Below are positions 25,893 through 55,989 of a DNA stretch of 64,000 bases, one piece after another. How positions within the stretch are numbered: the stretch's first letter is position 1; each line of letters begins with the position of its first letter. The DNA comes from an uncultured delta proteobacterium (GTDB lineage: Bacteria > Desulfobacterota > Binatia > Binatales > Binataceae). The position numbers and the translations under genes are program-made. The stretch lies in assembly GCA_963842085.1 (NCBI GenBank), contig CAWJET010000001.1, positions 1,920,001 through 1,984,000 on the forward strand, in the 5' to 3' direction. The notes under the pieces were generated by a model, which did no database searches, was not told the DNA's origin, and saw only the letters and a program-made list of their open reading frames with translations.

Positions 25893-25956
25893 GGGTGCAG
25901 GGGTCACCCCTGCCGAAGGAAGTGTGAAACCCACCGCGGGTTTCACATTCAATCAA
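25893..25956. repeat. REP-like family A, full copy
   Basis: GGGTGCAGGGGTCACCCCTGCC-GAAGGAA-GTGTGAAACCC-N5-GGGTTTCACA-TTCAATCAA; related copies at 47615, 50685-50747, 50973, 52016, 53071, 53249 and 54110. Confidence 0.85.
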
Positions 25957-25976
25957 GTGATTTCCCCGTCCACCCG

Positions 25977-26783
25977 CTACCCGCGTTTGGCGCCTTGCAG
26001 AATGTCGAACGGAGCGCGGCTCTTCTCACGCTTCAACAAGACGTACGTCGCACCCGCGCCGCCGTCCGCCGGACGTGCGCTCGTGAATGCCAGCACGTGG
26101 CCGCCAATTGCGCCATGCGACAGCCATCCGGCGGATGCATGCTTTAGCACCGAATGTCCGCCCGGAGATCGCAGCCCGCGCCCGTGGACGACCAGCACCG
26201 TGCGCAGCCCCTTGCGCACCGACGCGATGATGAACTCCTTGAGCGCTTCCTTGGCGGCGCCCTGGATCATCCCGTGCATGTCGAAATGCGCCTGCACGGC
26301 GAACTCGCCGCGGCGAAGCTGCGACACCAGGCGCGGGTCCAGGCCGACGCGGTAACCCTCGACGTATTCGTCCGACTCTGTGATATCGAACGGGGCCTGT
26401 CCCGACACGAGGTCCGACAGTCGCGCGATTACCTCCGCGTCCTCATCGACGATCGTGTGAGTGATCGGCGGCTCGAGCGGTATGCGCGACCGCGCGTTGC
26501 CGTTGCGATGCAGCGGCCGCACACCGTCGAGCGCCTGTCGCAGGAAAGACTCGTCGTCGAGCACTTCTGCAACGGGTGGCGCGGATTTTTGCACGGCCGG
26601 CGTCGCCGCTGTTGCAGCCTTGGGCTTGATCGCCGGCGCTTTCGATTCCGCTCGCTCACGCTCGGCGAGCATCTTCTTCAGGTCTTTGAATGGCGAGGAG
26701 AAGACCCGTTCAGGCGCGGACGCCGCCTTTCGTTCGCCGTCTGGCTCGTCGCCTCGGCGGCCATGCTTTCGCTTTTTTGCCAT
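25977..26783 (-). CDS. Stand-alone Smr-domain protein (SmrA/SmrB-like)
   Basis: ESFLRQALDGVRPL N-terminal motif, FDMHG, VVHGRG and DGGAGATYVLL. Confidence 0.88.
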   Translation of the reverse strand: MAKKRKHGRRGDEPDGERKAASAPERVFSSPFKDLKKMLAERERAESKAPAIKPKAATAATPAVQKSAPPVAEVLDDESFLRQALDGVRPLHRNGNARSRIPLEPPITHTIVDEDAEVIARLSDLVSGQAPFDITESDEYVEGYRVGLDPRLVSQLRRGEFAVQAHFDMHGMIQGAAKEALKEFIIASVRKGLRTVLVVHGRGLRSPGGHSVLKHASAGWLSHGAIGGHVLAFTSARPADGGAGATYVLLKREKSRAPFDILQGAKRG

Positions 26784-26977
26784 TGGGAGACAGAGCCGCA
26801 AGTTCGAGATCAATGACAGACTACGCCGAGGACGCAACGCCGTTCAAACCGGCGCGCGCTTGCAAGCGGGGGGAAGATAAAATCGCAAGCCAGAAATGGT
26901 GCGCATTCGGCGCGCATCGACTACACTTGCCGGCGTGTTGCGAACCAGTTCGAAGTTGCTGATGTGAGGATCCCCGT

Positions 26978-29503
26978 ATGCGCCGTGTCATCGTAATCGC
27001 CGCCGCAATTGTCGGCGCCATCGTGATTTTCGCCGGTGCCATCCTCTTTTATGCCGCGACCAACCTGAACTCGATCATCGCCGAACGCCGCCAGACTATC
27101 CTCGCCAAGGTCAGCAACGCGCTCGGCCGCCAGGTCCACGCCGACGACATCAAGGTGAGCCTCGGCTGGGGAATCATGGCCGACGTGACCGGCGTCCAGG
27201 TGGCAGACGATCCCGACATTTCGAAAAAGCCGTTCATCGAGGCAAGCAACGTTTACACGCGACTGCAACTGTTGCCCCTGCTGGCGCGCCGGATCGAGGT
27301 CACCGAAGTCGTGCTCGACAAGCCCGTGATCCGAATCGTTCAAACCCGCGACGGCAAGCTCAACGTGACGACGCTCGGCAGGAAGAAAGTCGAGAGCGAA
27401 GCGGAGTCGGGCGAGGCCGAGAGCAGGAAAGGCGGGGGCGCGACCGAAGAATCGCCGATGGCCGAAGCGGGCCGGGCGCCGTCGGCGCTGGGCTCGTTGT
27501 TCGTGCAGAATTTTACGATCAATGAGGGCACCTTGACCTATGAGACTGAAGGCGCGCCGCAGGGAGCGACCGTCAATGCGATCGACCTCAAGGTCCGCGA
27601 TTTCGGCTTCAATGCGCCCTTCACCGTCGCGCTCACCTTCGCCGCGCTCGCCGACCAGCAGAACTTCGATCTTTCGGCGACGATCGGGCCGCTGATCAGC
27701 AACGGCGTGCTCGATGTCGACGCGATTCCGCTGACGGGCAAGGCCAAAGTCGGGCCGCTTCAACTGACGCAGCTTGCGACGATCCCGATACTCGCGAAAT
27801 CGATTCCGCCGAAGCTCTCGATCTCCGGTCCGCTCAGCCTCGATGCCACCGCTGACGGCACCGTTCAGTCGATCAAATTCAACGTGACGAGCGATTTGAG
27901 CGCGCCTGCAATAACCTTCGGCGATACGTTCAGCAAGCCTGCCAACCTGCCGCTGAAGATATCGGCCGAGGGTTCGCGGACCGGCTCTGCCGTGGGAGTG
28001 ACCCTCGCCAACGTCACTCTCGGCGACCTCGAAGCGAAGGCAGCCAATATCAAGGTAGGAGGCGGCACGACCGCGGCTCACGTCGACACCAACAATTTCG
28101 ATATCGCTTCGCTCGCAAAAACGATTCCCGCGCTTGGCAAGTACAACCTCGCGGGCAAAGTCGAGATTCATGCCGACGCGGCGCTTGCGGAGGGCAAGGT
28201 GTCGGCTGACGGCACGGTCGCGCTCGCGGGCGTCGGATTGTCGCTACCCGATCAGAAAGCGCCCCCGCTGAGCAATCTCAGTGGCGACGTCAAGCTCACG
28301 GGCACCAGTGCCGACATTGGGCCGCTGACGTTCAATCTGGGCGCGCAGCAGGCCACGTTGAAGTCGCACGTCGACCAGTTCCAGCCGTTGGTAATGAGCT
28401 ATGAGCTGAATGCGGCCGCGGTTCGCCTGGCCGATCTCGTGCCCTCGCGGCCGCCCGACGAAGTGATCAACCAGCTTTTTGCCAAGGGCACGGTCTCGAT
28501 GGGTGGGAGGAATGTTACCACGGTCGATTCCGATATCACCTCGCCGTCGGGAAACCTGGCGAACGTTCCGTACCAGAACTTGAAGCTGTCGGCGTCGCTC
28601 GCCGACCAGCTTGCGCGGGTGACGATGCTGAAGTTGAAGGCGTTTTCAGGCGACATCGTCGCGACGGGAAACACGCGGCTCGCGGCGTCGGCGCCGATGG
28701 AAGCGTCGATCAGTTTTACCAATATCGACGTTCAACAGGCGCTCGACTCGCAAAAATCGAAGGCTGCGGGGACCGTTCGCGGGACGCTGGGCGGAAATAT
28801 CAACGTCACCGGGAAGACCGGCAGCTTCGACGAGATGAAGCCGACGCTGAAGGGCAGCGGCAAGCTGACGCTGACCAACGGCAAGCTGGTCGGCGTCAAT
28901 ATCGGCGGCCAGGCGCTCAAGAAGGTGCAGCACCTGCCCGCGATTGGCAACCTGGTTCCCGATGCGGTCGTCAAGAACCATCCCGAGCTGTTCAGCGATC
29001 CCGACACCGACATCCAGCTCGCGAGTCTGACCTTTGTGCTTACCGGGCCGCGAATCACGTCGCACGACATCAAGGTGCAGACGCTGGACTACAATCTGCT
29101 CGGCGACGGATGGTTCGACATAGACAAGAATATCGACCTGGCGGCGCGAATCGTGCTCTCGCCGCAATTCAGCAAGGAACTGATCGAGCAGAAGCAAGAA
29201 GTCGCGTTCATCGCGAATAAGTACGGACAAATCGACATCCCGCTGCAAGTCGTCGGGCAACTGCCCAAGCCGCAGGTCCTGCCCGACGTGACTGAACTTG
29301 CGCAACGCGCGGCAAATCACGCGGTGCAGGCACAGGGTCAGAAGTACCTGGGCAAGGTTTTCGGTAAGAAGGGACTGCCGGGAGGATTGAGCAAGTTTCT
29401 CGGCGGCGACTCGGGCGGAAATAACGGCTCCGGCGGTGGAGCACCCGCGGGCGGCTCCAACCCTCCGCCGAATCCGCTGGATCAGCTTAAGAAGTTGTTC
29501 TGA
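26978..29503 (+). CDS. AsmA-family protein
   Basis: N-terminal anchor, LQLLPLLARRIEVTEVVLDKPVI, beta-rich body and AsmA-like C-terminal GSGKLTLTNGKLVGVN...IPLQVVG. Confidence 0.8.
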   Translation: MRRVIVIAAAIVGAIVIFAGAILFYAATNLNSIIAERRQTILAKVSNALGRQVHADDIKVSLGWGIMADVTGVQVADDPDISKKPFIEASNVYTRLQLLPLLARRIEVTEVVLDKPVIRIVQTRDGKLNVTTLGRKKVESEAESGEAESRKGGGATEESPMAEAGRAPSALGSLFVQNFTINEGTLTYETEGAPQGATVNAIDLKVRDFGFNAPFTVALTFAALADQQNFDLSATIGPLISNGVLDVDAIPLTGKAKVGPLQLTQLATIPILAKSIPPKLSISGPLSLDATADGTVQSIKFNVTSDLSAPAITFGDTFSKPANLPLKISAEGSRTGSAVGVTLANVTLGDLEAKAANIKVGGGTTAAHVDTNNFDIASLAKTIPALGKYNLAGKVEIHADAALAEGKVSADGTVALAGVGLSLPDQKAPPLSNLSGDVKLTGTSADIGPLTFNLGAQQATLKSHVDQFQPLVMSYELNAAAVRLADLVPSRPPDEVINQLFAKGTVSMGGRNVTTVDSDITSPSGNLANVPYQNLKLSASLADQLARVTMLKLKAFSGDIVATGNTRLAASAPMEASISFTNIDVQQALDSQKSKAAGTVRGTLGGNINVTGKTGSFDEMKPTLKGSGKLTLTNGKLVGVNIGGQALKKVQHLPAIGNLVPDAVVKNHPELFSDPDTDIQLASLTFVLTGPRITSHDIKVQTLDYNLLGDGWFDIDKNIDLAARIVLSPQFSKELIEQKQEVAFIANKYGQIDIPLQVVGQLPKPQVLPDVTELAQRAANHAVQAQGQKYLGKVFGKKGLPGGLSKFLGGDSGGNNGSGGGAPAGGSNPPPNPLDQLKKLF

Positions 29504-29541
29504 CCTTTTCTATCGTTGAGAGAAGCGCGCGCACTCATTTT

Positions 29542-29585
29542 GTCATCCTTCCTGCCGCTCGCGTTGCTCGCTTTGTCAGGATGAC
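29542..29585. repeat. REP-like family B hairpin
   Basis: GTCATCCT...AGGATGAC inverted arms between convergent genes. Confidence 0.65.
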
Positions 29586-29673
29586 GAGGGGGCGGGCGTT
29601 CCGAACGATGCGAGGAACCTAACCCGTAACCTTTCTCATTGTGGTAACGGGAACCGGACGCGGAGAGACTCGT

Positions 29674-32010
29674 TCACAAATTCATCTGCACGATCGTTGC
29701 GCCGGCGCCGCCGTGATGCGGTTCCGCGCCGCGAAACGATGCGCAATATGGCGACGTGCCAAGGTATTCCGTCACCGCCTTTCGCAGCGCGCCCGAGCCG
29801 ATGCCGTGCACAATCCGCACTTCCGCGCGATTGGTCAGGAACGCGGTGTCGAGAAATTCCTCGAGCTTGCGCAGCGCGTCCGCCGTTCGCATCCCGATCA
29901 GGTTCAACTCGTCACGCTCGCCGCCCTCGATGCTGAAGGTGACGGCCGCCGTTTTCTTCTGCGCGGAGCGATTTTCGGGCGCGCTCGCCGCCGACCTGCG
30001 CAGCCGCTCGGGCGCGACCTCTATCCTGAGACCGCCGCGGCTGATCACGGCGCGTCCCGCTTCGAGCACGATCAATTCGCCGCGGATGTCGCCGACCTCG
30101 ACGCTGTCGCCGACCTTGAGCGGCGCGTCGGACTCCGATAAGGCGTCGGGCGCCGGCGCGAGGCTCTCGAGTTTCGCCGCCGCCTTGGTGATGAAGCCCT
30201 TCAAGTCGGTGCGCGATTTCACCCGGGTTTTCAGCTCATCCATCAGCGCCGCACCGTCGCGCCTCAGCTCTTCGATCAGGTCCGCAACTTCGGCCCGTAG
30301 CCGCTTGCGTTCCAGCTCGGCGCGCTCGCGCGTTTTTTCAGTGTCCTGAATCAGTTCCTGCTCGACGCGAGCGAGGTTGAGTTCGCGCTCGCGCAATTTT
30401 TCGAGCTGCGCATTCAGCTTGGCGCGCTCCGCGTCCAATCTCTTCAGCGCATCGCTGAGCTCGATCGTGCCGGCGCCCATCGATTGTTCGGCCGCGCGAA
30501 TTATTTCCTCGGGCAATCCGAGCCGGCGCGCGACTGCCAGTCCGTAGCTCTGCCCGATCGTATGCGGCTTCAGGCGATACAGCGGCGCCAGGTGCTCGGC
30601 GTCGAAATCCACCGCGGCGGCCTCGAAGCCGGCTTGCGAGTATGCGTGCAGCTTGACCGCGGTCGAATGCGTCGCGATCGCCATCATGCAGCGCCGCGTC
30701 CCGAGATGGTTCATCAGTCCGATCGCGAGCGCCGCGCCCTCGGCGGGGTCGGTGCCCGCGCCCGGCTCGTCGAGAATCACCAGCGCCGGCTCGTCCAGCG
30801 ATCTGATTATCTCCGACAAGTTTGCGATATGCCCCGAAAAGCTCGACAGGTTGGATTCAATCGACTGCTCGTCGCCGATATCGGCGAACACGCTGCGAAA
30901 CACCGTCGCCTTGCTGCCGGCGAGCGCCGGAATCAGCATCCCCGCCTGCGCCATCAGCGACAGCAGCCCAACCGTCTTGAGCGCGACAGTTTTTCCGCCG
31001 GTGTTTGGCCCCGAGATGACGATCCCGCGCTGTCCGGCGCCGATCTTCACGTCGATCGGAATCACGTCGCGGCCGCTGGTCATCAGCAGCGGATGCCGCG
31101 CGCCGATAAAATCGATTCCCTCGTCCACGAGCTGCGGCGCGACGCATCGAAAGCGCTCGGCGAAGAGCGCGCGCGCATTCAGCGCGTCGAGCGCGACCAT
31201 TGCGTCGAACGTGAACTGCAATTCCGGCGCGTACCCGCCGACCATCGCGGTCAGCCGCGCGAGGATTCGCGTTTCTTCCGCCTCCGCTTCGCGCTCGAGC
31301 ATCATCAGCCGGTTGTTCAGCTCGACCGCCCACAGCGGCTCGACGAACAGCGTCTCCCCCGAAACGCTTCGGTCCTGCACGATTCCCTCGAACCGTTCGG
31401 CGTAGTTCAGCTTCATCGGCAGCACGAAGCGGCGATTGCGTATCGTCACGATGTAATCGGAGACGAACGACTCCATGCCCGACGCGTTGAGCGAGCGCAG
31501 CAGCCGCGCCTCGAGTTCCGCGCGCTCGTCACGCAGCCTGCTGCGCAGCCGCTTCAACTCGGGGCTCGCGTCGTCGAGGATTGTGCCGTCGTCGGCCAGC
31601 GCACCGAGCATCGCGTCGGCCAGCTCCTTCGGCGCGAGCAGGTTCTGCACCAGCGCCGCGACGTGCGGGAAGCGCTCGACGCGCGATCGCAAAAATCCGC
31701 CGACATGGCGCGAGCCGACGATGAAATCGCGCACTTTCACCAGCGCTTCGCCGCCGAGGATCGCACCCGCGCGCTCCGCCGCCAGCAGGTACGGCCGTTG
31801 ATCGCTGAATTCGCCTATCGGTATCGAGCCGGCATGCGATCTCAGCTCGACCATTTCGGCTGTTGCGGCCAGCCGCTCCCGAACTTCATTCACGTCGACC
31901 GACGGGCGCAGTTGGGCGATTGCCTCGCGCCCCGGCTCGGAGGCGCAAAGCTCCATGACGAGGTGAATCACCTTGTCGAACTCGAGCGCTTTCAGATCGC
32001 GTTCACGCAT
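29674..32010 (-). CDS. mutS2: MutS2 (ATPase, coiled coil, KOW and Smr domains)
   Basis: LKALEFDK, SGETLFVEP, ISGPNTGGKT, DIGDEQSI, LDEPGAGTDP and IVHGIGSGALR motifs. Confidence 0.95.
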   Translation of the reverse strand: MRERDLKALEFDKVIHLVMELCASEPGREAIAQLRPSVDVNEVRERLAATAEMVELRSHAGSIPIGEFSDQRPYLLAAERAGAILGGEALVKVRDFIVGSRHVGGFLRSRVERFPHVAALVQNLLAPKELADAMLGALADDGTILDDASPELKRLRSRLRDERAELEARLLRSLNASGMESFVSDYIVTIRNRRFVLPMKLNYAERFEGIVQDRSVSGETLFVEPLWAVELNNRLMMLEREAEAEETRILARLTAMVGGYAPELQFTFDAMVALDALNARALFAERFRCVAPQLVDEGIDFIGARHPLLMTSGRDVIPIDVKIGAGQRGIVISGPNTGGKTVALKTVGLLSLMAQAGMLIPALAGSKATVFRSVFADIGDEQSIESNLSSFSGHIANLSEIIRSLDEPALVILDEPGAGTDPAEGAALAIGLMNHLGTRRCMMAIATHSTAVKLHAYSQAGFEAAAVDFDAEHLAPLYRLKPHTIGQSYGLAVARRLGLPEEIIRAAEQSMGAGTIELSDALKRLDAERAKLNAQLEKLRERELNLARVEQELIQDTEKTRERAELERKRLRAEVADLIEELRRDGAALMDELKTRVKSRTDLKGFITKAAAKLESLAPAPDALSESDAPLKVGDSVEVGDIRGELIVLEAGRAVISRGGLRIEVAPERLRRSAASAPENRSAQKKTAAVTFSIEGGERDELNLIGMRTADALRKLEEFLDTAFLTNRAEVRIVHGIGSGALRKAVTEYLGTSPYCASFRGAEPHHGGAGATIVQMNL

Positions 32011-32098
32011 CGCTAGTATCAAGCCCGGCCCTCTCAAAATTTAGCCCAACTTTGGTCCGCAGGCATCAGGATTCTTAACCGGCAGCAAGGACACTCAC

Positions 32099-33709
<1,611 letters not shown>

Positions 33710-33861
33710 TGAAATCAGGTTGTCCAATCTTCGTCTGGTTCTGTTCCGATTCCCTCTCACGTTCGTCGGGGGAGGGAATCAGAGGTGCTCATCCTCGAAG
33801 TTATCGTGAGCCGGCGCCTCCATTAGGCGCGGTTTCATCTACCGAAAAATGCTCCGCGAGG

Positions 33862-35343
33862 TCAGCCTTCCGGCGCGAGCATCTTGTCCGGCCGCACCAG
33901 CCGGTCGAACTCCTCCCCCGTGAGCAGCTTCAACGCCATCGCCGACTCGCGCAGCGTGATGCCTTCCGCGTGAGCCTTCTTGGCGACCTTGGCCGCGTTG
34001 TCGTAGCCGATATGCGGGCTCAGCGCCGTCACCAGCATCAGCGAATTTTCGACGTTGCGCTGGAGCTGTTCGCGATTCGGCTCGATCCCTCCGACGCAGT
34101 ACTTGCTGATCGACGCGCACGAATGCGCCAGCAGCATCGTCGAGTGCAGAAAATTGTGGATGATGAGCGGTTTGAAAACATTGAGCTCGAAATTCCCCTG
34201 CGAGCCGGCCGTCGTGATCGCCACGTCGTTGCCGATCACCTGGATGCAGACCATCGTCATCGCCTCGCTCTGCGTCGGATTCACCTTGCCCGGCATGATC
34301 GACGAGCCCGGCTCGTTCTCCGGCAGGATTAATTCTCCGAGACCGGTGCGTGGTCCCGAGCCCATCCAGCGGATGTCGTTGGCGATCTTCATCAGCGAGA
34401 CCGCCAGCGTCTTGAGCGCTCCGGACGCCGCCACCAACGCATCGTGCGCGGCCAGCGCCGCAAACTTGTTCGGCGCCGACTTAAACGGCAGCCCGGTGTA
34501 CTCCGCGATCTTTTTCGCCACGCGCTCCGCGAATTCCGGATGCGTATTGAGCCCGGTGCCGACCGCCGTGCCGCCGATCGCCAGCTCGAGCAGGTCCGGC
34601 AGCGCCGCCTCGAGCCGCTTCAGGTCATAGTCGAGCTGCGCGACGTAGCCCGAAAATTCCTGCCCGAGCGTCAGCGGCACCGCATCCATCAGGTGCGTAC
34701 GCCCGATCTTCACGATGTCGGCAAACTCTTTGGCCTTGCGCGCCAGCGCGTCGCGCAACTTTCGCACCGACGGGATCAGGTCGTGCGTGACTTCCTCGGC
34801 CGCCGCGATATGCATCGCAGTCGGAAACGTGTCGTTCGACGACTGCGACATGTTCACGTCGTCGTTGGGATGTATCGGCTTCTTGCTGCCGAGCACGCCG
34901 CCGGCCATCTCGATCGCGCGATTCGAGATGACTTCGTTGGCGTTCATGTTGGTCTGCGTGCCGCTGCCGGTCTGCCAGATGCGCAGCGGAAAATGATCGT
35001 CGAGTTTTCCCGCGATCACTTCGTCCGCAGCCGCGGTTATCAGCCGGGCCTTGTCGGCGGGCAGCTTGCCGAGCTCGCGATTCACTTCCGCCGCCGCCTT
35101 TTTCAAAATCCCGAACGCGCGCACCACCGAGCGCGGCATCCGATCGAATCCGATCGCAAAATGCAGCAGCGAACGCTCGGTCTGCGCCCCCCAGTAGCGG
35201 TCGTTGGCGACCTCGATCGCCCCCATGCTGTCGGTTTCGACGCGCTTGCCGGTCTGCGCCTTCACGGCCGCGGCCGCCTTTGCGGTCACCGGCCGCTTCG
35301 CGATGCTGGCCTTGAGCATCTTGGATCTCGAATTTGATGCCAT
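33862..35343 (-). CDS. fumC: Class II fumarate hydratase
   Basis: [18 protein letters not shown] and [13 protein letters not shown] motifs. Confidence 0.96.
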
Positions 35344-35561
35344 CTCCTATATTCCTGTCGGATTTCCGACGCTCTCCCACCGCCTATTCTAACCCGGCCG
35401 GCGGCCGATGACAGCGGTTTCCTGCCGCCGCGATTCGCCCCGGGGTGCCCTTTTCAGAGGCGCTGTGCCGATATAGGTTATGGCGCGTACTCTCGACAAT
35501 AGCGACCAAAGGTTTCGGTCGAGATATTATAAGGACTGGATTTCAAGCGAGGCTGCCAACC

Positions 35562-35921: not shown

Positions 35922-35958
35922 CAGCACAAACGCGCCAAACGCTGGCGCCACACATCGG

Positions 35959-36495: not shown

Positions 36496-36505
36496 CGCGT
36501 CCTCC

Positions 36506-45124: not shown

Positions 45125-45130
45125 CGAAGA

Positions 45131-46675: not shown

Positions 46676-46938
46676 TCTAACTCACCTCCGAGTGGGATCT
46701 TCCCTCGCTTGGGCGGCGGCGCGATGCCCCGTCCCAGTCGGGAAAACCTGGAAATGACAATGCCGCAGAGATGAAGAGTTTGGCAGGCATGCTCGCCGGA
46801 GTGCAAGCCAAATTTCACCGCCGCAACGCTTGCCCAGCCGCCCGCGCTGATCAAGGATAGCGGTCCGTGCCAGTTACGAGCGGCTTACGAGTAATGTCGA
46901 GCGCCACGCTTGCGCACAGCAGTTCGCCGGAGGTTCCA

Positions 46939-47520: not shown

Positions 47521-47614
47521 GGCAGCCGGCCCGGCGGCGCGAGCGCTCTTCGCCCTATCCCTTCTAACAGGGCGAAGCCCGCATCCCGCGGCGGTGCCGA
47601 TTCTCTTTAACACT

Positions 47615-47679
47615 GGGTGCAGGGGCTGGCCCCGGCCGAAGGAAGTGTGAAACCCACCGCGGGGTTCACCTCAAATCAA
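47615..47679. repeat. REP-like family A, full copy
   Basis: GGGTGCAGGGG...GCCGAAGGAAGTGTGAAACCCACCGCGGGGTTCAC...AATCAA, near-identical to the copy at 25893. Confidence 0.85.
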
Positions 47680-48233
47680 CCTGTTGTTCCTGGGTCTGGC
47701 GCTTGGCGTCGGCGACGATTCGCTCGATCGGGGTTAGGGGGCGCTCTTGTGGCTTGTCCGGCCCTACAGGTTCCGGGATCCGGTTCTTGGCGTCGGCGAC
47801 GATTTTGTCAAGCGCACTTTGTGGCTGCGGTTGTTCCTTGTCCGGCGAGTTTTGCCGCTCGGGAGCCTGTTCTAGCTGCGTTCCATCGCGCCAGTAGGAT
47901 TGATATCCGATAAAGCCGTCCGGGCCGTACTCGATTTCGGCGGGGCCGTCTTCCCTATGGAGTTTGCCGTTGCGGCAATATTCTTCAAACCTAGAGCCGT
48001 CGGCTTGGCGCTCGACGACCGCCGGCCCGTCGTCGCGGTGTTGTTGGCCGTCGCGGAACCAGTGTTCGGTCGAGTATTCGCCGTCGGGCTCATGGTGGAT
48101 GCGGGCCGCTCCGTCTTTCTCGGTGAAGCTTGTCGGCCTGGTACCAGCTTTCATAGGTGACGAATCCGTCTTCGGCGCGCTCGGTCCAGGCGGGCCCGTC
48201 GTCGCGATGAAGTGCGGCCGACCGCTTTCGCAC
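47666..48233 (-). pseudogene. Frameshifted, probably 5'-truncated repeat protein (HR[DE]DG[PA]A repeats)
   Basis: Four LHRDDGPA-type repeats spread over two frames; one extra base in the T-run at 48116-48118. Confidence 0.6.
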
Positions 48234-48460
48234 TAGAGGAACTGACTATCGCCGAAGAGAGCTTGATAGCCGCGCTGGTGAAGAAAGCGGTCAGCTGAGC
48301 CGCCACAAGAAAGCCTGCTCCGATTTCTGATTCCAATGGCTCCGTACCCGCGAGCCATCGCGCGTTCCATCAGTTGGAGTCACCGGAATGTGCCAGTTAT
48401 CACCCGGTTTCGAAGTAACGGAAAGGTTAACTGTCCAACTGGGCCTCGACTAATCACCGT

Positions 48461-49171
48461 TCACTTTTCCGCGGCCGCTATGTAGAGACCCGCTCTCCCA
48501 ATCACGGGCGTCGGGGCAGTCGTGCACTCGACTTCCAGTGACGAGACCAGGTTCTCCAAATGGCTCCAGGGCTTGTTGAAACCCTCGAAGGTGGTCACGA
48601 AGTCTTTAGCACCCCGCCAAGTTCTCCAATTGGTGATGGGATGCCACCACGGAGTCCATTTCACGCCGATCGCGGCGATGCGTCCACCAGGCTTTAAGTC
48701 TTCGATCACGTTCCGCAACGCCGACGGAGTACGCATTATATCGTGAGTGAAGGAAAACAGCGCGGCGTCCGCCACAAAAGGTATCTCAGCGTCCTCGACT
48801 GGCGTGTTGATCAGCAGAACGTTGCTCCATCCGCGGCTCTCTACCAGCGCTCGTGCCGCGGCCAGTTGCTCTGGACTCTGCTCGATACCGATGATTCTTC
48901 CCTTGGCGCCGACTCTGTTTTCGAGCTCGGCGAAACTCCGGCCAGCTCCGCATCCTACGTCCAAGACAGTGTCGCCAGTCGTGAGTCGAAGGCTGGCTAT
49001 GCATCGTTCACTCAACTGGAGGAATTCCTCGAACCTTCTCTGCCAAACTGGACCACCGGTTGTTCGTCGATCGTAAACCGCCCGGACGCGTTCTGATCGA
49101 TACTTTTGCAATGCAGATTGCCGACTGGGCATGACGCCTCTCAGTAATTTTGCTGCGCGGCTGCGAATCAT
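48461..49171 (-). CDS. Class I SAM-dependent methyltransferase, atypical codon usage
   Basis: VLDVGCGAG, GIE and LKPGGR motifs; start uncertain. Confidence 0.78.
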   Translation of the reverse strand: MIRSRAAKLLRGVMPSRQSALQKYRSERVRAVYDRRTTGGPVWQRRFEEFLQLSERCIASLRLTTGDTVLDVGCGAGRSFAELENRVGAKGRIIGIEQSPEQLAAARALVESRGWSNVLLINTPVEDAEIPFVADAALFSFTHDIMRTPSALRNVIEDLKPGGRIAAIGVKWTPWWHPITNWRTWRGAKDFVTTFEGFNKPWSHLENLVSSLEVECTTAPTPVIGRAGLYIAAAEK

Positions 49172-49225
49172 TTTGCTATCGTCACAATAGCTTCACATCA
49201 AATCAGGTGATTTGCCCTTCCCCTG

Positions 49226-50269
49226 CTACTGCGTCACCACCAATATCCTGAACGTCCCCGGCACCGGCACCGGCCGCGGATGCGCCGCGGTACTGCCCGG
49301 CGCAAACTTGAGGTCCGCCGTCGGCAGGTAAATCATCTCGCCGGTGGAATCCACCGCCATCGTCCGCGCCCCCAGCGCGGTCCTCACCACCTGCGCCAGT
49401 TCGAACTTGTCCGCCGACACTTCGCGAATAATCGTCAACGTCCCGTCGCCGCAGCTCGCGAATGCCAGCCCGCCGCGGAATGCGCTCGCGTCGACGTAGG
49501 CGCCGATCGGAAACTCGGCCACGATCTTTCCGTCATCGGCGTTCATCACGACCAGCTTGTTGTTTCGACAGCCGATAAACAGCCGCCGCGTCGCACGGTC
49601 CATCGAGATCGCCGTCGGCGCCATCCCCGGCGCGGTCGGCCATCGCGCGACCACCTTCATCGCCTTCGTATCGACCACGGCCACCTCGTCCTTGTCCACG
49701 ATATTGACGAACACCTTGCCCTTCCCATCGGCGACCGCGAACTCCGGCTTGCCACCCAAATCAACCGTCGCCGCCGCTTTGCCGCCGGCCGGATTCACGT
49801 CGGGTGCTAAAGCCACCATCTGATGCGCGTCGCCGCAGAAAACCAGCACGCGATTACTGGCGCGGTCATAGATGATCCCGTCGGCGTCATCGGCCGCCGC
49901 CACCTTGCCGAGGCTCGCGCGGGTCTTCAAATCGAAGATCTGCACCGCGCCGGCCTTGCCGTCACTGATAAATCCGCGCCCCGCGTCGGGCACCAGCACC
50001 ACGCCATGCGCTCCCTGCTGCCCGCCGATATCTGCCAGCAGCTTTCCCGACGCCACGTCCACCACCATCGTATGCGTCGTGCGGGTGACGTAGAGCACCC
50101 GCCCGTCGGCTTTGAGCGTCGCGTAGTCCCATCCGCCCTCGCCGCCGACCGCAACAGTCGCGGCCACCCGGTAAGCATTCGGCCCCGTATCCGCCGCCAT
50201 CGCCGCGCCCGCTGCAACCGCCACCCCAACAATCACCAAACCGGAAAGTCGAACAAGATAATTTTTCAT
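49226..50269 (-). CDS. Secreted YncE/YVTN-like beta-propeller protein
   Basis: Signal peptide; GGEGGWDY, HGVVL, GKPEFAVADG and GARTMAVD motifs. Confidence 0.82.
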   Translation of the reverse strand: MKNYLVRLSGLVIVGVAVAAGAAMAADTGPNAYRVAATVAVGGEGGWDYATLKADGRVLYVTRTTHTMVVDVASGKLLADIGGQQGAHGVVLVPDAGRGFISDGKAGAVQIFDLKTRASLGKVAAADDADGIIYDRASNRVLVFCGDAHQMVALAPDVNPAGGKAAATVDLGGKPEFAVADGKGKVFVNIVDKDEVAVVDTKAMKVVARWPTAPGMAPTAISMDRATRRLFIGCRNNKLVVMNADDGKIVAEFPIGAYVDASAFRGGLAFASCGDGTLTIIREVSADKFELAQVVRTALGARTMAVDSTGEMIYLPTADLKFAPGSTAAHPRPVPVPGTFRILVVTQ

Positions 50270-50305
50270 ATGCCTTTTGTGTCATCCCGAGCCTTTCGAC
50301 CTCGC

Positions 50306-50662
50306 TCAGGACGCGACCCATCCAAGTTGCCGAAACGATCCGTCGGCCTCGCACTGCAACTCGACCACCCGCACCACCGCATCGACATTCAACTCTCCAT
50401 ACAGATGAGGAAACAACTCGCCCGCCGACTCGCCACGCGCCATCGTCGGCGCCTCATATTTCAATTCCGCCTTCAGCCGCGACTCGTCAATGCACAACAC
50501 GACCAGGCCGTCGCGCCCACGATAAAACCGGTTGGCAGTATCGATCACCTGCGCAAGCGTCGAGCAATGGATAAACCCCTCCACCCGCAAACTCTCCGGC
50601 GCATAACTCCCGCGCCCGACGGCCTCCGTCCACTCACTCCGCTTGACTATATGAAGGATCAT
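50306..50662 (-). CDS. DUF952 family protein
   Basis: ILHI, EGFIHCST and FPHLYG motifs. Confidence 0.88.
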   Translation of the reverse strand: MILHIVKRSEWTEAVGRGSYAPESLRVEGFIHCSTLAQVIDTANRFYRGRDGLVVLCIDESRLKAELKYEAPTMARGESAGELFPHLYGELNVDAVVRVVELQCEADGSFRQLGWVAS

Positions 50663-50684
50663 CGCACCCGCCCACGAATACCCG

Positions 50685-51018
50685 CGAAAGAACTTGATTG
50701 TAGTGGAACCCGCCGTCGGTTCCACACCTCCCTCGGCAGGGGTCACCTCCTTCGGCTTCGCTCAGGACAGGCTCTGCACCCGGTGCTGAGAAAGGATGCG
50801 GTCGGAGTTTACCCGACAGTTTGTGAGGAATTGGTTGCCATCGGAGCACTGGCGCCAAGTCATCAGAGGCAGAATCTTGAATCGCGCGCAAAAGAGCGCG
50901 CTGAATAAGGACCCTCACCTTAATCCTCTCCCTTGCAGGGAGAGGAAATTAACGCGCGTTGCTGGCGCAAAAGAGGTGTGGAACCCGCGGCGGGTTCCAC
51001 TACAATCACGTTCTTTCG
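50685..51018. repeat. REPIN-like inverted doublet of family A with nested family B and C fragments
   Basis: Arms 50685-50730 and 50973-51018 are reverse complements over 46 bp with 3 mismatches. Confidence 0.85.
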
Positions 51019-51944
51019 TTCCCCCGGCTTAGGCGCGCATCGATGCGCGTCGAATTGCCCAGCAGCATCTCGGCGATCGCTGTCAGATCGTTATCGTCGT
51101 AGTAATCGATTTCGATTCTTCCCGGGCTCCGGCCGCGGCGCTTGAAAATTCTGACCTTGCGCTTGAGCGCGCGTTGCAGGCCTTCGGCGAGTGCGTTCAG
51201 ATTGGCATCGGCGGCGGAGCGCGATGCGCCGCTCTTCGACGCGCGTGGGCGACTCGCCGTTGCCATTTCTTCGGCGCCGCGCGCCGAGAGTCCGACCGCC
51301 GCGATTCGCCGCGCCGCCGATAGCTGCGCCTCGGCGGATTTCAGACCCAGCAGCGGGCGCGCCTGTCCTGCCGAGAGTTCTCCCTTCGCGATCATAGTCA
51401 GAATCGGCTGCGGCAGTTCGAGCAATCGAAGCGCGTTGCTGACGTAGGGGCGGCTCTTGCCGACGCGCGCCGCGATTTCGTCCTGGGTCAGCTCGAAATG
51501 GTCGACCAGCCGGAAAAACGCGAGCCCTTCTTCGACCGCATTCAGATCCTCGCGCACGATATTCTCGACCAGCGACATCTCGAGCGCCGCGCGATCGTCG
51601 AGCTCGCGCACCACCACCGGCACCGCTTCCAGACCCGCCGCGCGCGCCGCCCGCAGCCGCCGCTCGCCCGCGATCAGCTCGTAGCGCGGCCCATCGGGCT
51701 CCGCCGCGCCGATTCGCCGCACGATCAGCGGCTCGATAATTCCCTGGCTCTGGATCGCGCGCGTCAGTTCGGCCAGCCGCTCCTTGTCGAAGTTTATCCG
51801 CGGCTGAAAAGGACCCGCCGTGATACTCCCGACCGGCGCCATCCTGAATTGCGCGCCGCTGCTGACTTCGGCGCCGGCTTCAATTTCCGCCGCCACGTTG
51901 CCGATCAGCGCATCGAGCCCTCGTCCCAATGGTTTCCGCATCAT
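51006..51944 (-). CDS. parB: Chromosome partition protein ParB/Spo0J
   Basis: LGRGLDAL, QPR, IAGERRLRAA, ENIVREDL and HTH GKSRPYVSNALRLL. Confidence 0.95.
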   Translation of the reverse strand: MMRKPLGRGLDALIGNVAAEIEAGAEVSSGAQFRMAPVGSITAGPFQPRINFDKERLAELTRAIQSQGIIEPLIVRRIGAAEPDGPRYELIAGERRLRAARAAGLEAVPVVVRELDDRAALEMSLVENIVREDLNAVEEGLAFFRLVDHFELTQDEIAARVGKSRPYVSNALRLLELPQPILTMIAKGELSAGQARPLLGLKSAEAQLSAARRIAAVGLSARGAEEMATASRPRASKSGASRSAADANLNALAEGLQRALKRKVRIFKRRGRSPGRIEIDYYDDNDLTAIAEMLLGNSTRIDARLSRGNERT

Positions 51945-52015
51945 CCTGGCAGTCCTCTGTGCTTTCGATCGTTTTCGCCTTTCGATCCGCACCGCTCAGC
52001 ATCGCGCTCGACGCG

Positions 52016-52045
52016 GGGAACCCACGGTGGGTTCCACATTCAATC
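52016..52045. repeat. REP-like family A, right hairpin only, overlapping the parA stop
   Basis: GGGAACCCACGGTGGGTTCCACATTCAATC. Confidence 0.75.
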
Positions 52046-52834
52046 AGTTCCCGTTCCATTCTGTTCACGCGCAATTATCTCCGCGGCGAGCGCGCGGTAG
52101 CCTTCGGCGCCGGCCGACCTCGGCCCGTACTCGAGCACGGACAGTCCATGGCTCGGACTTTCCGACATCCGCACGCTGCGCGGAATCACGCTGCGAAAAA
52201 CTTTTTCAGGAAAATGCTTTCGCACCTCGTCCGAGATTTCGTGACTGAGGCGATTGCGCGAGTCGAACATCGTGAGCACCAGGCCCTCGAGCTCGAGCGC
52301 CGGCCTGAGCGCCGCTTTGACCTTGTTGATCGTGCCGAGCAACGCGCTCAGACCCTCGAGCGCGTAGTACTCACACTGCATCGGCACCAGCACGGAGTCC
52401 GCCGCGACGAGCGCGTTGAGCGTGAGGATTCCGAGCGAGGGCGGCGTATCGATTAGAACATAGTTATATTCTTCTCGCAGCGGCTCCAGGAGCGCACGCA
52501 CGCGTCGCTCGCGACCTTCCATCGTCACCAGCTCGATCTCGGCGCCGACCAGGTCGTCGCCCGCCGGCGCCAGCGACAGCATCGGCCGCACCTGCCGGAG
52601 GATTTCCGCGATCGCCAGGCCGCCGACAATCGCCTGGTAGATGGTCTTGCCCTCGTGGCGCGCAGCGGCGACGTCCTCCGGCGTACTGATCCCGGAAGTG
52701 GCGTTCCCCTGCGGATCGAGGTCAACGAGCAGCACGCGCCGCCCCGTATCGGCCAACGCGACCGCAAGGTTGATAGCCGTCGTAGTCTTGCCGACGCCGC
52801 CTTTCTGATTGGCTATTGCGATTACCCGCCCCAC
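52040..52834 (-). CDS. parA: Chromosome partition ATPase ParA/Soj
   Basis: NQKGGVGKTT, DLDPQGNAT, DTPPSLG, QCEYYALEG and ESPSHG; GTG start. Confidence 0.95.
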   Translation of the reverse strand: MGRVIAIANQKGGVGKTTTAINLAVALADTGRRVLLVDLDPQGNATSGISTPEDVAAARHEGKTIYQAIVGGLAIAEILRQVRPMLSLAPAGDDLVGAEIELVTMEGRERRVRALLEPLREEYNYVLIDTPPSLGILTLNALVAADSVLVPMQCEYYALEGLSALLGTINKVKAALRPALELEGLVLTMFDSRNRLSHEISDEVRKHFPEKVFRSVIPRSVRMSESPSHGLSVLEYGPRSAGAEGYRALAAEIIAREQNGTGTD

Positions 52835-52904
52835 AACCTGCCCCGGCAGGGACTTGCCCCTGCACCCTCGCAAAGAAGAGACCTGGACCCGGACCGCACT
52901 CAGA

Positions 52905-52920
52905 CGTTTCACGTGAAACG
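52905..52920. promoter_or_regulatory. parS site 1
   Basis: CGTTTCACGTGAAACG palindrome matching the parS consensus. Confidence 0.92.
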
Positions 52921-53015
52921 TCCCCGCAACCATTAAATCCCCGCGATCGCAAAAGATCAAATCGCGCGATCAGATTTGCACAAATGATTGAATTTATTGA
53001 GTTTTCGCGATTAAA

Positions 53016-53031
53016 CGTTTCACGTGAAACG
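53016..53031. promoter_or_regulatory. parS site 2
   Basis: CGTTTCACGTGAAACG. Confidence 0.92.
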
Positions 53032-53089
53032 TTCCTCAAACGCGGAAGAGAGCCGCTTTTCTTTTTCATTGGGTGCAGGGGTCACCCCT

Positions 53090-53105
53090 GCTTTCACGTG
53101 AAACG
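53090..53105. promoter_or_regulatory. parS site 3, imperfect and fused to the family A hairpin at 53071-53091
   Basis: GCTTTCACGTGAAACG. Confidence 0.8.
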
Positions 53106-53135
53106 TCGGATGCTGCCAGCTAGCACTGCTCGTTC

Positions 53136-53213
53136 GTCATCCTGACGATGCGAGCAGCGCGAGCTGAGGAAGGATCTCGGACAGCTTCGCGTCAGCGAAG
53201 CCGGTTCCGGTCT
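53136..53213. repeat. REP-like family B long unit
   Basis: Similar to 18897-18973 and 44954-45030. Confidence 0.8.
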
Positions 53214-53263
53214 CGAGATCGCGGAGCGGTGCTTACTAAGGAGTAACCGGTCACCCCTGCCTG

Positions 53264-54013
53264 CTAGCGGCGGGTCCAGGTGGCGACGGCGCGGCGCATC
53301 ACATTGCGGCCGTGGCGCAAATCGTATCCGGCCACAGACCCATCGACCAGCCCCGCCGCCGAGGCGGCAACGACACTGGCGGCATCGTCGAACTTCTGGT
53401 CGGCGCTGACGTAGAGCATCAGCACGCCCCCCTGATGCAAAGCCCTACCGGCAATCTCGAAAATGCCGGCAGGATTGCCGACTGCGCGCGCCGTCACGAG
53501 GTCGAACCGGTCCCGAACGTCGAGCGATTCGGCGCGCGCGCATTCGACGTGGACGTTGCGCAGTCCCATCTCGACGGCGACCTCGCTGAGAAACGTCGCC
53601 CGCTTGCGGCGCGCCTCGACTAGAGTCACCTGAGCGTTGATCGCGGCGGCAATCACGAGGCCGGGGAAACCGGCGCCGCTGCCGATATCCAGGAAGCGGC
53701 GCTCGCGATCGAGCCGCGTGTTGAGCCGCAGGATCTTCGAGCTGACCGCAATCGAGACCGGGATAATACTGTCGAAGACGTGGAACACGATCTCGTCTGG
53801 GTCCCGCGGATGCGCCGTCAGGTTGATCTTCGTGCCCCACAGCGCGAGCGTCGCCGCCATCCGCTCGATCCGGCCCAGGAACTCGACGGTGTTGGCGACC
53901 ACCCCAGTCGCCGCGATCGCAGGGGCAAGCTGAGCGCGCACCGCGGCGGCAATCTCGTCGGGAGTGGCCGCCTTTTTCTTTTTCGGCGGCCGCGCCTTAG
54001 CCTTATGTTTCAC
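53264..54013 (-). CDS. rsmG: 16S rRNA m7G527 methyltransferase
   Basis: INLTA, HVFDS, LDIGSGAGFPG and TARA motifs; lies between mnmG and parA. Confidence 0.92.
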   Translation of the reverse strand: MKHKAKARPPKKKKAATPDEIAAAVRAQLAPAIAATGVVANTVEFLGRIERMAATLALWGTKINLTAHPRDPDEIVFHVFDSIIPVSIAVSSKILRLNTRLDRERRFLDIGSGAGFPGLVIAAAINAQVTLVEARRKRATFLSEVAVEMGLRNVHVECARAESLDVRDRFDLVTARAVGNPAGIFEIAGRALHQGGVLMLYVSADQKFDDAASVVAASAAGLVDGSVAGYDLRHGRNVMRRAVATWTRR

Positions 54014-54021
54014 GTGAAACG
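54006..54021. promoter_or_regulatory. parS site 4, overlapping the putative rsmG start
   Basis: TGTTTCACGTGAAACG. Confidence 0.9.
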
Positions 54022-54070
54022 TCCGTGATCAGCCGAATTACCCGCTAAATTCCTAGGTTATTTTCCAAAA

Positions 54071-54086
54071 TGTTTCACGTGAAACG
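54071..54086. promoter_or_regulatory. parS site 5
   Basis: TGTTTCACGTGAAACG. Confidence 0.92.
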
Positions 54087-54120
54087 TTCCTGAAGAGGCT
54101 CCTTTCAATGGGTGCAGGGG

Positions 54121-55989
54121 TCACCCCTGCCGGGCGCGCCGGCTCTTGATATGGACCGCAAGGATCGAGATTGCCGCCGGCGTGATTCCCGGCATCCGGG
54201 CCGCCTGCCCGAGCGAACGCGGTCGCACGGCTGACAGGCGCTCAGACACTTCGGTCGAAAGACCCATCACGCCCTTGAAATCCACCCAGCCCGGTATCGT
54301 CGTGTCCTCGAGGCGCGCGAACCGCTCGACCGCCTCCGCTTGCCGGCGAACGTAGCCCTCGTACTTGACCTCGGTCTCGAGCTCGGCGGCTTCGTCGAGG
54401 TTCAGCTCGGGATCGACGCCGCTCATCTTCAGCAAGGCGTCGTTGCCGATTTCGGGACGCTTGAGCAGCTCGATCGCGCGCACCGGCTGCGCGATCGGCG
54501 TCGAGCCGGACGCCGCAAGCAGCGCGTTGACCTCGTCGGACGCCGGTATCAGCGCCGATTTGAGCCGCTCGATCTCGCGGCGTACCGCCTCGGTCTTGGC
54601 GCGAACGCGCGCGCCCGCCGACGCGTCGAGCAATCCCAGCCGCTCGCCAATCGGCGACAGCCGGCGGTCCGCATTATCCTCGCGCAGCAGCAGCCGGTAC
54701 TCGGCGCGCGAGGTGAACATCCGGTACGGCTCGCCGCCGATCCCGCGGGTCACCAGGTCGTCGATCATCACGCCGATGTAGGCCTGGTCGCGGCGCAGGA
54801 TTAGCGACGGCTCGCCGCGGACCGTGAGCGCGGCGTTGATTCCCGCGAGCAGACCCTGCGCGCCCGCCTCTTCATAGCCGGTAGTGCCGTTGATTTGCCC
54901 GGCGAAGAACAGGCCGCGCACCAGCTTGGTCTCGAGCGACGGCGTCAACTGCGTCGGGTCCGAGAAGTCGTACTCGATCGCGTAGCCGGGACGCATGATT
55001 TCCGCCTGCTCGAGCCCGGCGATCGAACGCACCATCGCGAGCTGGACATCGAGCGGCAGGCTGGTGGACAGGCCGTTAGGATAAACCTCGACCGTGTCGC
55101 GGCCTTCGGGCTCGAGGAAAATCTGGTGGCGCTCCTTGTCCCGAAAGCGCATCACCTTGTCCTCGACCGACGGGCAATAGCGCGGCCCCTTGCTCCGGAT
55201 CACGCCGGAGTACATTGGGGAGCGGTCGATACCGCCGCGAATTATCTCGTGGGTGCGCGAGTTGGTGAACGTCAGGTGGCAGGGAATCTGCGCCTGCGTG
55301 ATGCGTTCGGTGCGGAACGAGAACGGCGGCGGCGGCTCGTCGCCCGGCTGGAGCTCGAGCGCGGAGTAGTCGATCGTGCGAGCGTCGAGGCGCGGACAGG
55401 TCCCGGTCTTGAGGCGGCCGATATGGAAGCCCAGTTGCGCGAGATGATCGCTGAGACCCATCGCGGCGAAGTCGCCGGCGCGGCCCGCGGAATAATTCTG
55501 CAAGCCGATATGGACGAGGCCTTTCAGGAACGTGCCGGTAGTGAGGATGACGGCGGGCGCCTCGAACACCTCGCCAATCTGCGACTCGACGCCGCGCACC
55601 GCGCCGTCGGCGACGAGCAGGCGCTCGACGCTCGCCTGCCGCACCTGCAGGTTGGCGGTGCGCTCGAGCACGCGCTTGCTGCGCGCGCGATAGGCGGCCT
55701 TGTCGGCCTGCGCGCGGCGGGCGCGAACGGCGGGGCCCTTGCGCGTGTTTAGAAACCGGAACTGGATGCCGGTCTCGTCGGCCGCCAGGCCCATCTCGCC
55801 GCCGAGCGCGTCGATCTCGCGGACCAGGTGGCCCTTGCCGATGCCGCCGATCGCCGGGTTGCACGACATCTGGCCGATATGGTCGAGGTTGAGCGTGAGC
55901 ATCAGGGTGCTCGCGCCCATCCGGGCGGCGGCGAGCGCGGCCTCGATGCCGGCATGGCCGGCGCCGACGATGATGACGTCGTAGGTCAT
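54121..55989 (-). CDS. mnmG: tRNA U34 carboxymethylaminomethyl modification enzyme (GidA)
   Basis: GAGHAG, MSCNPAIGG, GPRYCPS, AGQINGTTGYEEA and YRMFTSRAEYRL motifs. Confidence 0.97.
   Translation of the reverse strand: MTYDVIIVGAGHAGIEAALAAARMGASTLMLTLNLDHIGQMSCNPAIGGIGKGHLVREIDALGGEMGLAADETGIQFRFLNTRKGPAVRARRAQADKAAYRARSKRVLERTANLQVRQASVERLLVADGAVRGVESQIGEVFEAPAVILTTGTFLKGLVHIGLQNYSAGRAGDFAAMGLSDHLAQLGFHIGRLKTGTCPRLDARTIDYSALELQPGDEPPPPFSFRTERITQAQIPCHLTFTNSRTHEIIRGGIDRSPMYSGVIRSKGPRYCPSVEDKVMRFRDKERHQIFLEPEGRDTVEVYPNGLSTSLPLDVQLAMVRSIAGLEQAEIMRPGYAIEYDFSDPTQLTPSLETKLVRGLFFAGQINGTTGYEEAGAQGLLAGINAALTVRGEPSLILRRDQAYIGVMIDDLVTRGIGGEPYRMFTSRAEYRLLLREDNADRRLSPIGERLGLLDASAGARVRAKTEAVRREIERLKSALIPASDEVNALLAASGSTPIAQPVRAIELLKRPEIGNDALLKMSGVDPELNLDEAAELETEVKYEGYVRRQAEAVERFARLEDTTIPGWVDFKGVMGLSTEVSERLSAVRPRSLGQAARMPGITPAAISILAVHIKSRRARQG

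Follow-up and report, generated by a model that had tools for sequence, protein, structure and literature searches.

We analysed a 64,000-nucleotide stretch of the genome of an uncultured member of the Binatia, hereafter the window (G000:C1:1920001-1984000; G000 is the source genome, 4.93 Mb in two contigs, C1 and C2, with 61% G+C), in which copies of a dispersed hairpin repeat, family A, lie among parS sites of the parAB partition system. We take the window to be the origin region because it contains the only full dnaA match of G000 (~20.9-21.4 kb), its only canonical parB and, on the minus strand, the gene order mnmG-rsmG-parA-parB; the parS sites of this region are ~30 kb from dnaA. An earlier reading of the same stretch (the original prediction) noted that the arms of one family A hairpin are the two halves of parS in swapped order, and proposed that the repeat generates, derives from or mimics parS, while allowing for coincidence.

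Hairpins, parS sites and gene ends in the origin region

The window contains the five GTGRAAC-N9-GTTYCAC hairpins that the prediction had listed, starting at 25924, 47647, 50703, 50978 and 52015 (the second and the last with one mismatch), where 0.02 matches were expected from shuffles. The five parS sites were also confirmed, four of them GTTTCACGTGAAAC (52906, 53017, 54007 and 54072) and one CTTTCACGTGAAAC (53091), against 0.47 expected. We call the hairpin with these arms H1 and its neighbour in the repeat H2. As had been noticed, one H2, GGGTGCAGGGGTCACCCCTGC, continues directly into a parS, TTTCACGTGAAAC (53071-53104), and a second H2 (54110-54131) begins 24 nt past the parS at 54072-54085.

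Four genes of the window, parA, parB, mnmG and the open reading frame (ORF) at 47666-48154, terminate within family A modules. The stop codon of the ORF is a TGA (47666-47668) within the H1 5' arm GTGAAAC, that of mnmG is a TGA (54121-54123) in an H2 loop, so that MnmG ends in RQG, and the 5' module of the copy behind parA codes for the final ParA residues. The full copy at 25877-25972 has an RNA fold of -55.8 kcal/mol (z -4.1). All features are collected in Table 1.

Table 1. Features of the origin region, with positions counted within the window, and examples of the dispersed parS unit (family P) on contig C2 of G000
Feature	Position	Strand	Evidence and remarks
Family A, full copy: 5' module, H1 (25924-25946), linker, H2 (25893-25914), tail	25877..25972	-	nhmmer E 2.5e-28
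Family A, H1 (47647-47669, one arm mismatch), H2 degenerate	47600..47688	-	nhmmer E 4.2e-19
Family A, GTGGAACCC H1 variant (50703-50725), ACCTCC-type linker, H2 with enlarged loop	50686..50812	+	nhmmer E 2.4e-16
Family A, H1 only, GTGGAACCC variant (50978-51000)	50970..51019	-	nhmmer E 8.5e-5; 5' module contains parB stop (51006-51008)
parB	51006..51944	-	Pfam ParB_N + HTH_ParB, E 1.5e-30 and 2.4e-31
Family A, degenerate, H1 only (52015-52037)	52010..52062	-	nhmmer E 1.3e-5; 5' module contains parA stop (52040-52042)
parA	52040..52834	-	Pfam AAA_31, E 5.3e-60
H2-like hairpin, 12 nt off parA start codon	52846..52867	+	sequence reading; no nhmmer match
parS-a, genus-conserved	52906..52919	.	pattern match + relatives
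parS-b, genus-conserved, 110-123 nt from parS-a in relatives	53017..53030	.	pattern match + relatives
Family A 3' module (tail + H2, 53071-53091), between parS-b and extra parS	53044..53091	-	nhmmer E 1.3e-6, model positions 66-115
Extra parS; first base is last base of H2; duplicated copy flanking H2 module	53091..53104	.	16-nt direct repeat across module
H2 remnant, 2 nt from rsmG stop (53264-53266)	53249..53261	-	sequence reading
parS-c, genus-conserved	54007..54020	.	pattern match + relatives
parS-d, genus-conserved, 65-66 nt from parS-c	54072..54085	.	pattern match + relatives
Family A 3' module, H2 (54110-54131)	54100..54132	-	nhmmer E 5.3e-5
Family P examples	C2:1135607-1135640, C2:544739-544772, C2:183819-183851, C2:465268-465299, C2:964633-964663		

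Family A is a modular gene-end repeat of one genus

The members of family A are non-coding repeats of ~125 nt, modular and rich in hairpins. Its consensus runs from a 5' module (~GGGGAAGGGAAAATCACTTTATTGAAT) through H1 (GTGAAACCC-N5-GGGTTTCAC), a linker (GCTTCCTTGG) and H2 (GCAGGGGTGACCCCTGC) to a tail that contains one more hairpin, H3; either half can also stand alone. Counted as non-overlapping nhmmer matches to a profile made from oriented copies, the family has 130 members on the two contigs of G000: 76 with both H1 and H2, 12 with H1 only and 42 without H1. The linker varies with the stem type, ACCTCC accompanying G at position 4 and GCATCC accompanying GCGAAAC. Since stem and linker vary together, the subfamilies stem from different master copies.

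We compared G000 with 18 other genomes of the genus for H1 and parS counts, searched 41 genus genomes for the H2-parS junction and 40 others for the parS unit (both described below), and used as outgroups 12 genomes of the class that belong to other families, and 39 that represent 29 further genera of the same family. Two of the genomes, G035 and G018, are flagged as unpublished, and the conclusions are unchanged without both; G035 is counted among three parS-b-side fusions, 11 junction genomes and three GTGAAAC copies behind parA. Among the genomes searched, family A is confined to one genus of uncultured Binatia: exact H1 occurs in 16 of the 18 genus genomes and in none of the 12 from other families, and the composite H1-linker-H2 pattern is absent from all 39 genomes of the other genera. 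One of the genus genomes, G018, has neither an exact H1 nor an exact parS; it has three GCG-type hairpins, and its rsmG locus holds only one-mismatch parS sites. Rfam gave no match to the window at gathering scores, and none at E up to 1 for four loci with family A, fusions and the parS unit.

Gene-end statistics were obtained with rough gene calls made here (4515 genes, 84.5% coding). Of 77 H1 copies, 44 follow a co-directional gene, the stop codon lying at most 50 nt from H1 in 40 of these. Of 37 copies with H2 only, 16 have a co-directional stop whose end falls at offset -2 to 0 or +9, counted from the first base of H2, compared with 0.7% of random places. Offset 0 is a TAG finished by the first G of H2, and offset +9 is the TGA of the H2 loop. 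Family A copies gather exactly at gene 3' ends, often providing the stop codon. In the relatives, ParA homology ends at a common point (AAEIIAR), after which the last residues and the stop come from whichever module is present. This placement on stop codons is unusually precise and bears on gene-end annotation and on the 3'-end biology of this uncultured lineage.

H1 and H2 both fold as hairpins (H1 as DNA at -8.5 to -10.8 kcal/mol), and in the RNA fold the 5' module is base-paired to the H2 region. GCTTCC stands after H1 and ACCC after H2 in place of a T run; read on the other strand, the tail hairpin leads into a T-rich stretch, an arrangement that would resemble an intrinsic terminator. Family A could stabilise or terminate transcripts, and is probably maintained as a 3'-end hairpin element that is either selfish or of slight use.

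H1 conserves its pairing and not the parS heptamer

The 7-nt identity between H1 arms and parS halves is exact, as the original prediction had stated. However, the true H1 stem comprises 9 bp around a 5-nt loop, and the identity ends at the seventh nucleotide: the eighth base is C in H1 (a C:G pair in 78 of 86 copies) and G or A beside all 20 parS sites of G000. The halves also stand in the opposite order to those of a canonical parS and 9 bp apart, GTGAAAC-N9-GTTTCAC in place of the spacerless head-to-head GTTTCAC-GTGAAAC. The further claim, that hairpin and parS share the same degeneracy, holds for the copies in the window but not for the genome. Across G000, compensated changes are most frequent at stem position 2 (C:G for T:A, 10 of 86 copies, with T:A kept in 55), a position within the CACGTG centre of parS; those at position 4 (G:C for A:T, n=5) and position 1 (n=3) are fewer. 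The GTTCCAC half is found in only 1 of the 20 parS sites.

Compensated forms are common throughout the genus. The GCGRAACCC..GGGTTYCGC stem is present in all 18 other genomes, where it numbers 33 versus 34 for GTGAAACCC in G005 and 28 versus 37 in G002, and it outnumbers GTGAAACCC in deep-branching genomes, namely G010 (10 versus 1), G015 (4 versus 1), G017 (4 versus 0) and G018 (3 versus 0). A family A copy follows parA in 14 of 22 loci, with the 5' arm GTGGAAC in five, GCGGAAC in four, GTGAAAC in three and GCGAAAC in two. The 3' arm matches the 5' arm in all 10 copies in which it is intact and readable, the other four being degenerate in G000 and G012, truncated in G002 and incomplete at the locus end in G014. 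With four stem types beside parA, the parS-like letters are therefore free to change even there. Because compensated variants occur across the genus, including these post-parA copies, we conclude that pairing has been kept and a ParB half-site has not. What H1 conserves is its pairing and the core GAAACCC/GGGTTTC.

The reading of H1 as a swapped parS or a parS mimic is accordingly not supported, since its heptamer is not conserved and compensated GCG forms occur throughout the genus; nor is a link of the repeat to the origin, the family being dispersed over both contigs. Lack of heptamer conservation and dispersal through the genome were two of the three outcomes that the original prediction had named as speaking against it. 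The 7-nt identity is a trait of one subfamily and most likely a coincidence, and the swapped-parS finding as first stated is probably ordinary.

One alternative would give the likeness a function: H1 arms might act as weak ParB half-sites that coat the nucleoid or mark gene ends, the GTGAAAC subfamily having expanded for that reason. In Pseudomonas aeruginosa, more than 80% of ParB peaks in chromatin immunoprecipitation sequencing are at GTTCCAC or GTTTCAC, independent of cytidine triphosphate (CTP) binding and dimerisation, according to an excerpt of PMC10419367 (see also bioRxiv 10.1101/280743), and these are exactly the two heptamers of the H1 arms in the window. Family A moreover holds about a quarter of the GTTTCAC copies of G000 (546 in total versus 408 with the repeat and parS masked). 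The P. aeruginosa half-sites are, however, single heptamers bound by ParB in vivo, as that excerpt describes them, whereas the family A heptamer is not conserved, with heptamer-destroying compensated variants common everywhere, beside parA included. Outside the repeat the heptamer is neither enriched nor avoided (408 versus 435.7 expected, ratio 0.94; 546 versus 499.5 before masking), and ~900 half-sites exist already by chance. Nor do the tail-to-tail order and the 9-bp spacer fit a ParB dimer on parS, whose geometry is established as head-to-head. We consider a half-site role very unlikely.

Family A and parS share the spacers around parAB

Family A lies within 100 nt of 4 of the 14 parS loci of G000, compared with 2% of random non-genic bases. 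A test of this proximity against random intergenic places gave P ~2e-4 but was dropped as evidence, since an unrelated 29-nt repeat is equally close to family A, at 6 of 21 loci, and since the gene calls used leave 21.6% of the genome 'intergenic'; the repetitive extragenic palindrome (REP) beside a Y1 transposase is as close at 1 of 3 loci. We conclude that the repeats merely share permissive spacers. The claimed clustering of copies around parAB was borne out in that 47.6-54.1 kb is the densest 7-kb stretch of the genome, with 6 of the 130 copies, but the family is otherwise dispersed, with five copies at another locus and up to 11 in a 100-kb bin. The density at parAB arises because the parS sites occupy short spacers behind mnmG and rsmG and before parA, where gene-end modules collect.

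Besides families A and P, G000 has the dispersed repeat GTCATTCAGAGCGCAGCGAAGAATCCCGG, whose 26 copies fall into 21 loci and often adjoin family A (within 100 nt at 6 of the 21); a diverged copy lies in the window at 53130-53200. Family P is the parS unit described below.

H2-parS junctions are mostly accompanied by additional parS copies

The idea that the repeat generates parS is partly borne out in another form, in that family A is tied to the making of parS copies through H2-parS junctions. A four-parS core was found in 16 of 22 rsmG loci spanning both spacers: one pair of sites, 110-123 nt apart, lies between parA and rsmG, and a second pair, separated by 65-66 nt, lies upstream of rsmG. 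Around this core, family A pieces are present in some loci and absent from others. The ~100-nt spacer between parS-a and parS-b (window 52920-53016; containing CATTAAATCCCCGCGATCGC and TCAAATCGCGCGATC) is conserved in the genus much better than the adjacent spacers, and may be a parA promoter or operator.

The junction, in which parS without its last C runs into GCAGGGG, was searched for as TTCACGTGAAA-N0-4-GCAGGG and gave 16 matches in 11 of the 41 genomes; a reversed control gave 0. All 16 were inspected, and in 13 a second parS stands at the tail end of the H2 module. The three others, of which two have a CGT linker and one lies in G046, lack it in the stretch read. The 13 fusions with a second parS lie on the parS-b side in G000, G001 and G035, and G047 also has one at parS-b; at parS-a, in opposite orientation, in G002; at parS-c in G050; at parS-d in G005, G032 and G047; and inside dispersed parS units in G002, G040 (twice) and G008. 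Filled sites, with the order parS, module, parS and flank, can be set against empty ones, with parS and the same flank, at parS-b (G001 versus G004), parS-d (G005 versus G008) and parS-c (G050 versus G008). An H2 module at such a junction is thus nearly always flanked by duplicated parS, and each event therefore adds one; the parS at 53091-53104 is the product of such a duplication.

The duplicated length varies (13, 17, ~30-60 and ~150 nt), so a fixed-stagger transposase does not fit, and tandem arrays occur in G032 and at one locus of G002. Depending on the genome, one short H2 subfamily (loop CCAG, tail AGTCAGGAAA) stands at parS-a, -b, -c or -d; it is an ordinary dispersed subfamily, of which 1 in 30 sampled loci touches parS. 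The fusions would be local insertion or template-switch events whose products were kept for the added parS. Candidate routes are template switching at ParB-bound parS and the movement of a module-plus-parS cassette between parS sites. In the broader reading given below, the break points fall at parS edges, as if a ParB-bound parS were the place of a template switch or of element integration.

A stronger claim would be that the 3' modules of family A are specifically related to parS, either integrating with a 12-13-nt site duplication or moving as a module-plus-parS cassette from site to site, with ParB perhaps holding sites together or stalling forks at their edges, whether or not the H1 heptamer is related. 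The recurrence of the junction with an empty reversed control, the second parS beyond most modules, the filled and empty sites at three parS positions, the return of one CCAG subfamily to several sites and the lack of such direct repeats at ordinary H2-only copies all argue for it. The module itself, however, is not parS-specific, the CCAG loci and the H2-only copies of G000 touching parS in 1 of 30 and 1 of 37 cases, respectively; the duplicated length is not fixed; 3 of the 16 junctions have no second parS; the sole Y1 transposase has another REP; and no reverse transcriptase was matched. We regard this specific relation as unlikely.

The spot by the rsmG stop bears on the possibility that H1 descends from parS, its stem coming from a segment between two parS sites that was shortened and mobilised, or that parS copies arise from H1. 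Seven relatives (G007, G016, G032, G003, G033, G009 and G011) have H2-linker-H1 where G000, G001 and G035 have H2-parS; the seven may be orthologous or independent. These alternating occupants, together with the parS-module-parS structures, speak for descent. But the H1 flanks (ATTGAAT and GCTTCC) are unlike the outer parS halves, the identity stops after seven nucleotides, and parS is by textbook knowledge universal and far older than a genus-level repeat. In addition, the deep-branching G010 has H1-like hairpins, without H2, whose first pairs are CC, TC, GT or GC around a constant GAAACCC core, and because these pairs vary the parS-like GT form looks derived. Descent in either direction is extremely unlikely.

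Weighing the explanations

On balance, the joint explanation that we consider probable is that family A is a genus-specific gene-end hairpin repeat, that the likeness of H1 to parS is coincidental, and that the fusions came from local events. Several points weigh against it. No other 7-kb stretch holds as many family A copies as the parAB locus, with its six. An exact 7-nt identity is rare a priori, at 3 windows x 2 orientations / 4^7 = ~4e-4 per 9-bp stem, which is small for a single family although unremarkable across very many scanned windows. P. aeruginosa ParB, in the excerpt of PMC10419367, binds isolated GTTTCAC and GTTCCAC, so that ParB binding to H1 arms is conceivable. The H2-parS junction recurs at the identical nucleotide at several different parS sites. 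Direct repeats of at least 10 nt flank a single one of the 37 H2-only copies of G000, the copy at parS (two others have 8-9-nt matches), so the duplication is parS-specific and generic slippage fits poorly.

A dispersed and conserved parS unit

Exact parS 14-mers number 18 in G000 (20 with one mismatch) and lie on both contigs. Across the genus the number is 0-29 per genome: of the other genomes, 17 of 18 have at least two, and 16 of these have 8-29, versus 0-5 in the 12 genomes from other families. In G007, a single-contig genus genome, 17 sites lie all round the chromosome, 13 of them in a recurrent unit that we call family P, formed by parS, a short T-rich spacer, AGTTCAGGAGAAC and then AAAACRCGAA. 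Of the 20 parS sites in G000, 13 belong to family P, which is present in 36 of the 40 other genomes searched. Conservation of the unit is far stronger in its core than on its left side. Units after purC and folE are orthologous in G000, G007, G033 and G012, and are missing there in G004 and G017. No hybrids of H1 with the right-hand motif of family P were found in G000.

The five parS sites of the window, at parA, rsmG and mnmG, are standard palindromes beside parAB and agree with the canonical parS/ParB-CTP system, as far as the excerpt of PMC7333895 describes it. In that excerpt, parS sites cluster near the origin, and the cause of the clustering and of the variable number of sites is posed as a question. 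The genus differs, with 8-29 exact parS all round the chromosome in 16 of its 18 other genomes, and a conserved dispersed set of this kind is unusual by comparison with the origin clustering described there.

This allows a broader joint reading, in which parS is recurrently duplicated at family A modules (five or more parS positions, 11 of 41 genomes) and is also carried by a dispersed conserved unit at orthologous sites after housekeeping genes, so that repeats shape the number and placement of centromere sites. We hold it to be possible but doubtful. If confirmed, extra parS arising beside hairpin modules would bear on the parS-number question posed in the excerpt of PMC7333895, and the genus would retain ~10-25 exact parS far from the origin; ParB would then work on dispersed sites instead of an origin-proximal cluster.

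The possibility that a second ParB reads the dispersed sites was rejected: the only other ParB_N protein of G000 (489 amino acids; G000:C1:573160-574629, minus strand) joins a weak ParB_N match to an N6/N4 DNA methylase domain, and because it lacks the ParB helix-turn-helix it is not a second parS reader. In the deep-branching G015 and G017, exact parS pairs 29-31 nt apart lie on many contigs, an arrangement not seen in G000.

Insertion sequence (IS) elements that target REPs are known, and family P has similar inserts. An IS1595-family element (PF12762 + PF12760) sits at the identical point of two units, between AGTTCAGGAGAAC and parS (C2:391441-393430 and C2:928820-930808), and a third, longer insert splits another unit (G000:C1:1043673-1046649).

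Relation to known repeat families and candidate mobilisers

REPs and bacterial interspersed mosaic elements (BIMEs), found with REP-associated tyrosine transposases (RAYTs) in Enterobacteria and Pseudomonas, are short GC-rich palindromes with many extragenic copies and module mosaics. Family A is like them in its GC-rich palindromes, its mosaics of modules, its place behind genes, its compensatory stems and its narrow taxon. It differs in that no cognate RAYT was found, in that its copies overlap coding ends and provide stops, and in having three hairpins in fixed order. Correia elements of Neisseria and the palindromic elements of Rickettsia (RPEs) are miniature inverted-repeat transposable elements (MITEs) that overlap gene ends. 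Family A resembles such elements in being ~100-150 nt long, non-coding and dispersed, in altering gene 3' ends and in having master-copy subfamilies. Unlike in MITEs, no terminal inverted repeats are visible in its consensus, and no parent IS was identified, although no systematic search for one was made; nor is there a target-site duplication, 36 of the 37 H2-only copies having no flanking repeat of 10 nt or more (the sole exception is at parS) and none of 7 linker-less copies having an H1 duplication. We conclude that family A is a new genus-specific REP/MITE-like family. Our narrow search of the literature found no described link of parS to REP-like repeats and no account of genomic repeats in Binatia.

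The original prediction had suggested looking for a cognate RAYT; as mobiliser a RAYT was rejected, none that is cognate being found in G000: the sole Y1 transposase (one PF01797 match) is flanked by GGGCGGGCCGCCGTGCCCGCC, with the nearest family A copy ~14 kb off. Target-primed copying by a reverse transcriptase was likewise discarded, there being no PF00078 match in G000. The gene of the Y1 (IS200-like) transposase (G000:C1:1118700-1119360) lies among copies of its own REP, GGGCGGGCCGCCGTGCCCGCC, two in direct and two in inverted orientation. This layout is typical of RAYTs and has no relation to family A; the REP has 5 copies in 3 loci.

Neither parB nor dnaA is present on contig C2, and the GC skew of G000 is very weak, too weak to place the terminus. 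Contig ends fall in multi-copy IS-like repeats (C1:1-1224 and others), and one such element, of 1.2 kb, recurs in 10 more copies at 89% identity.

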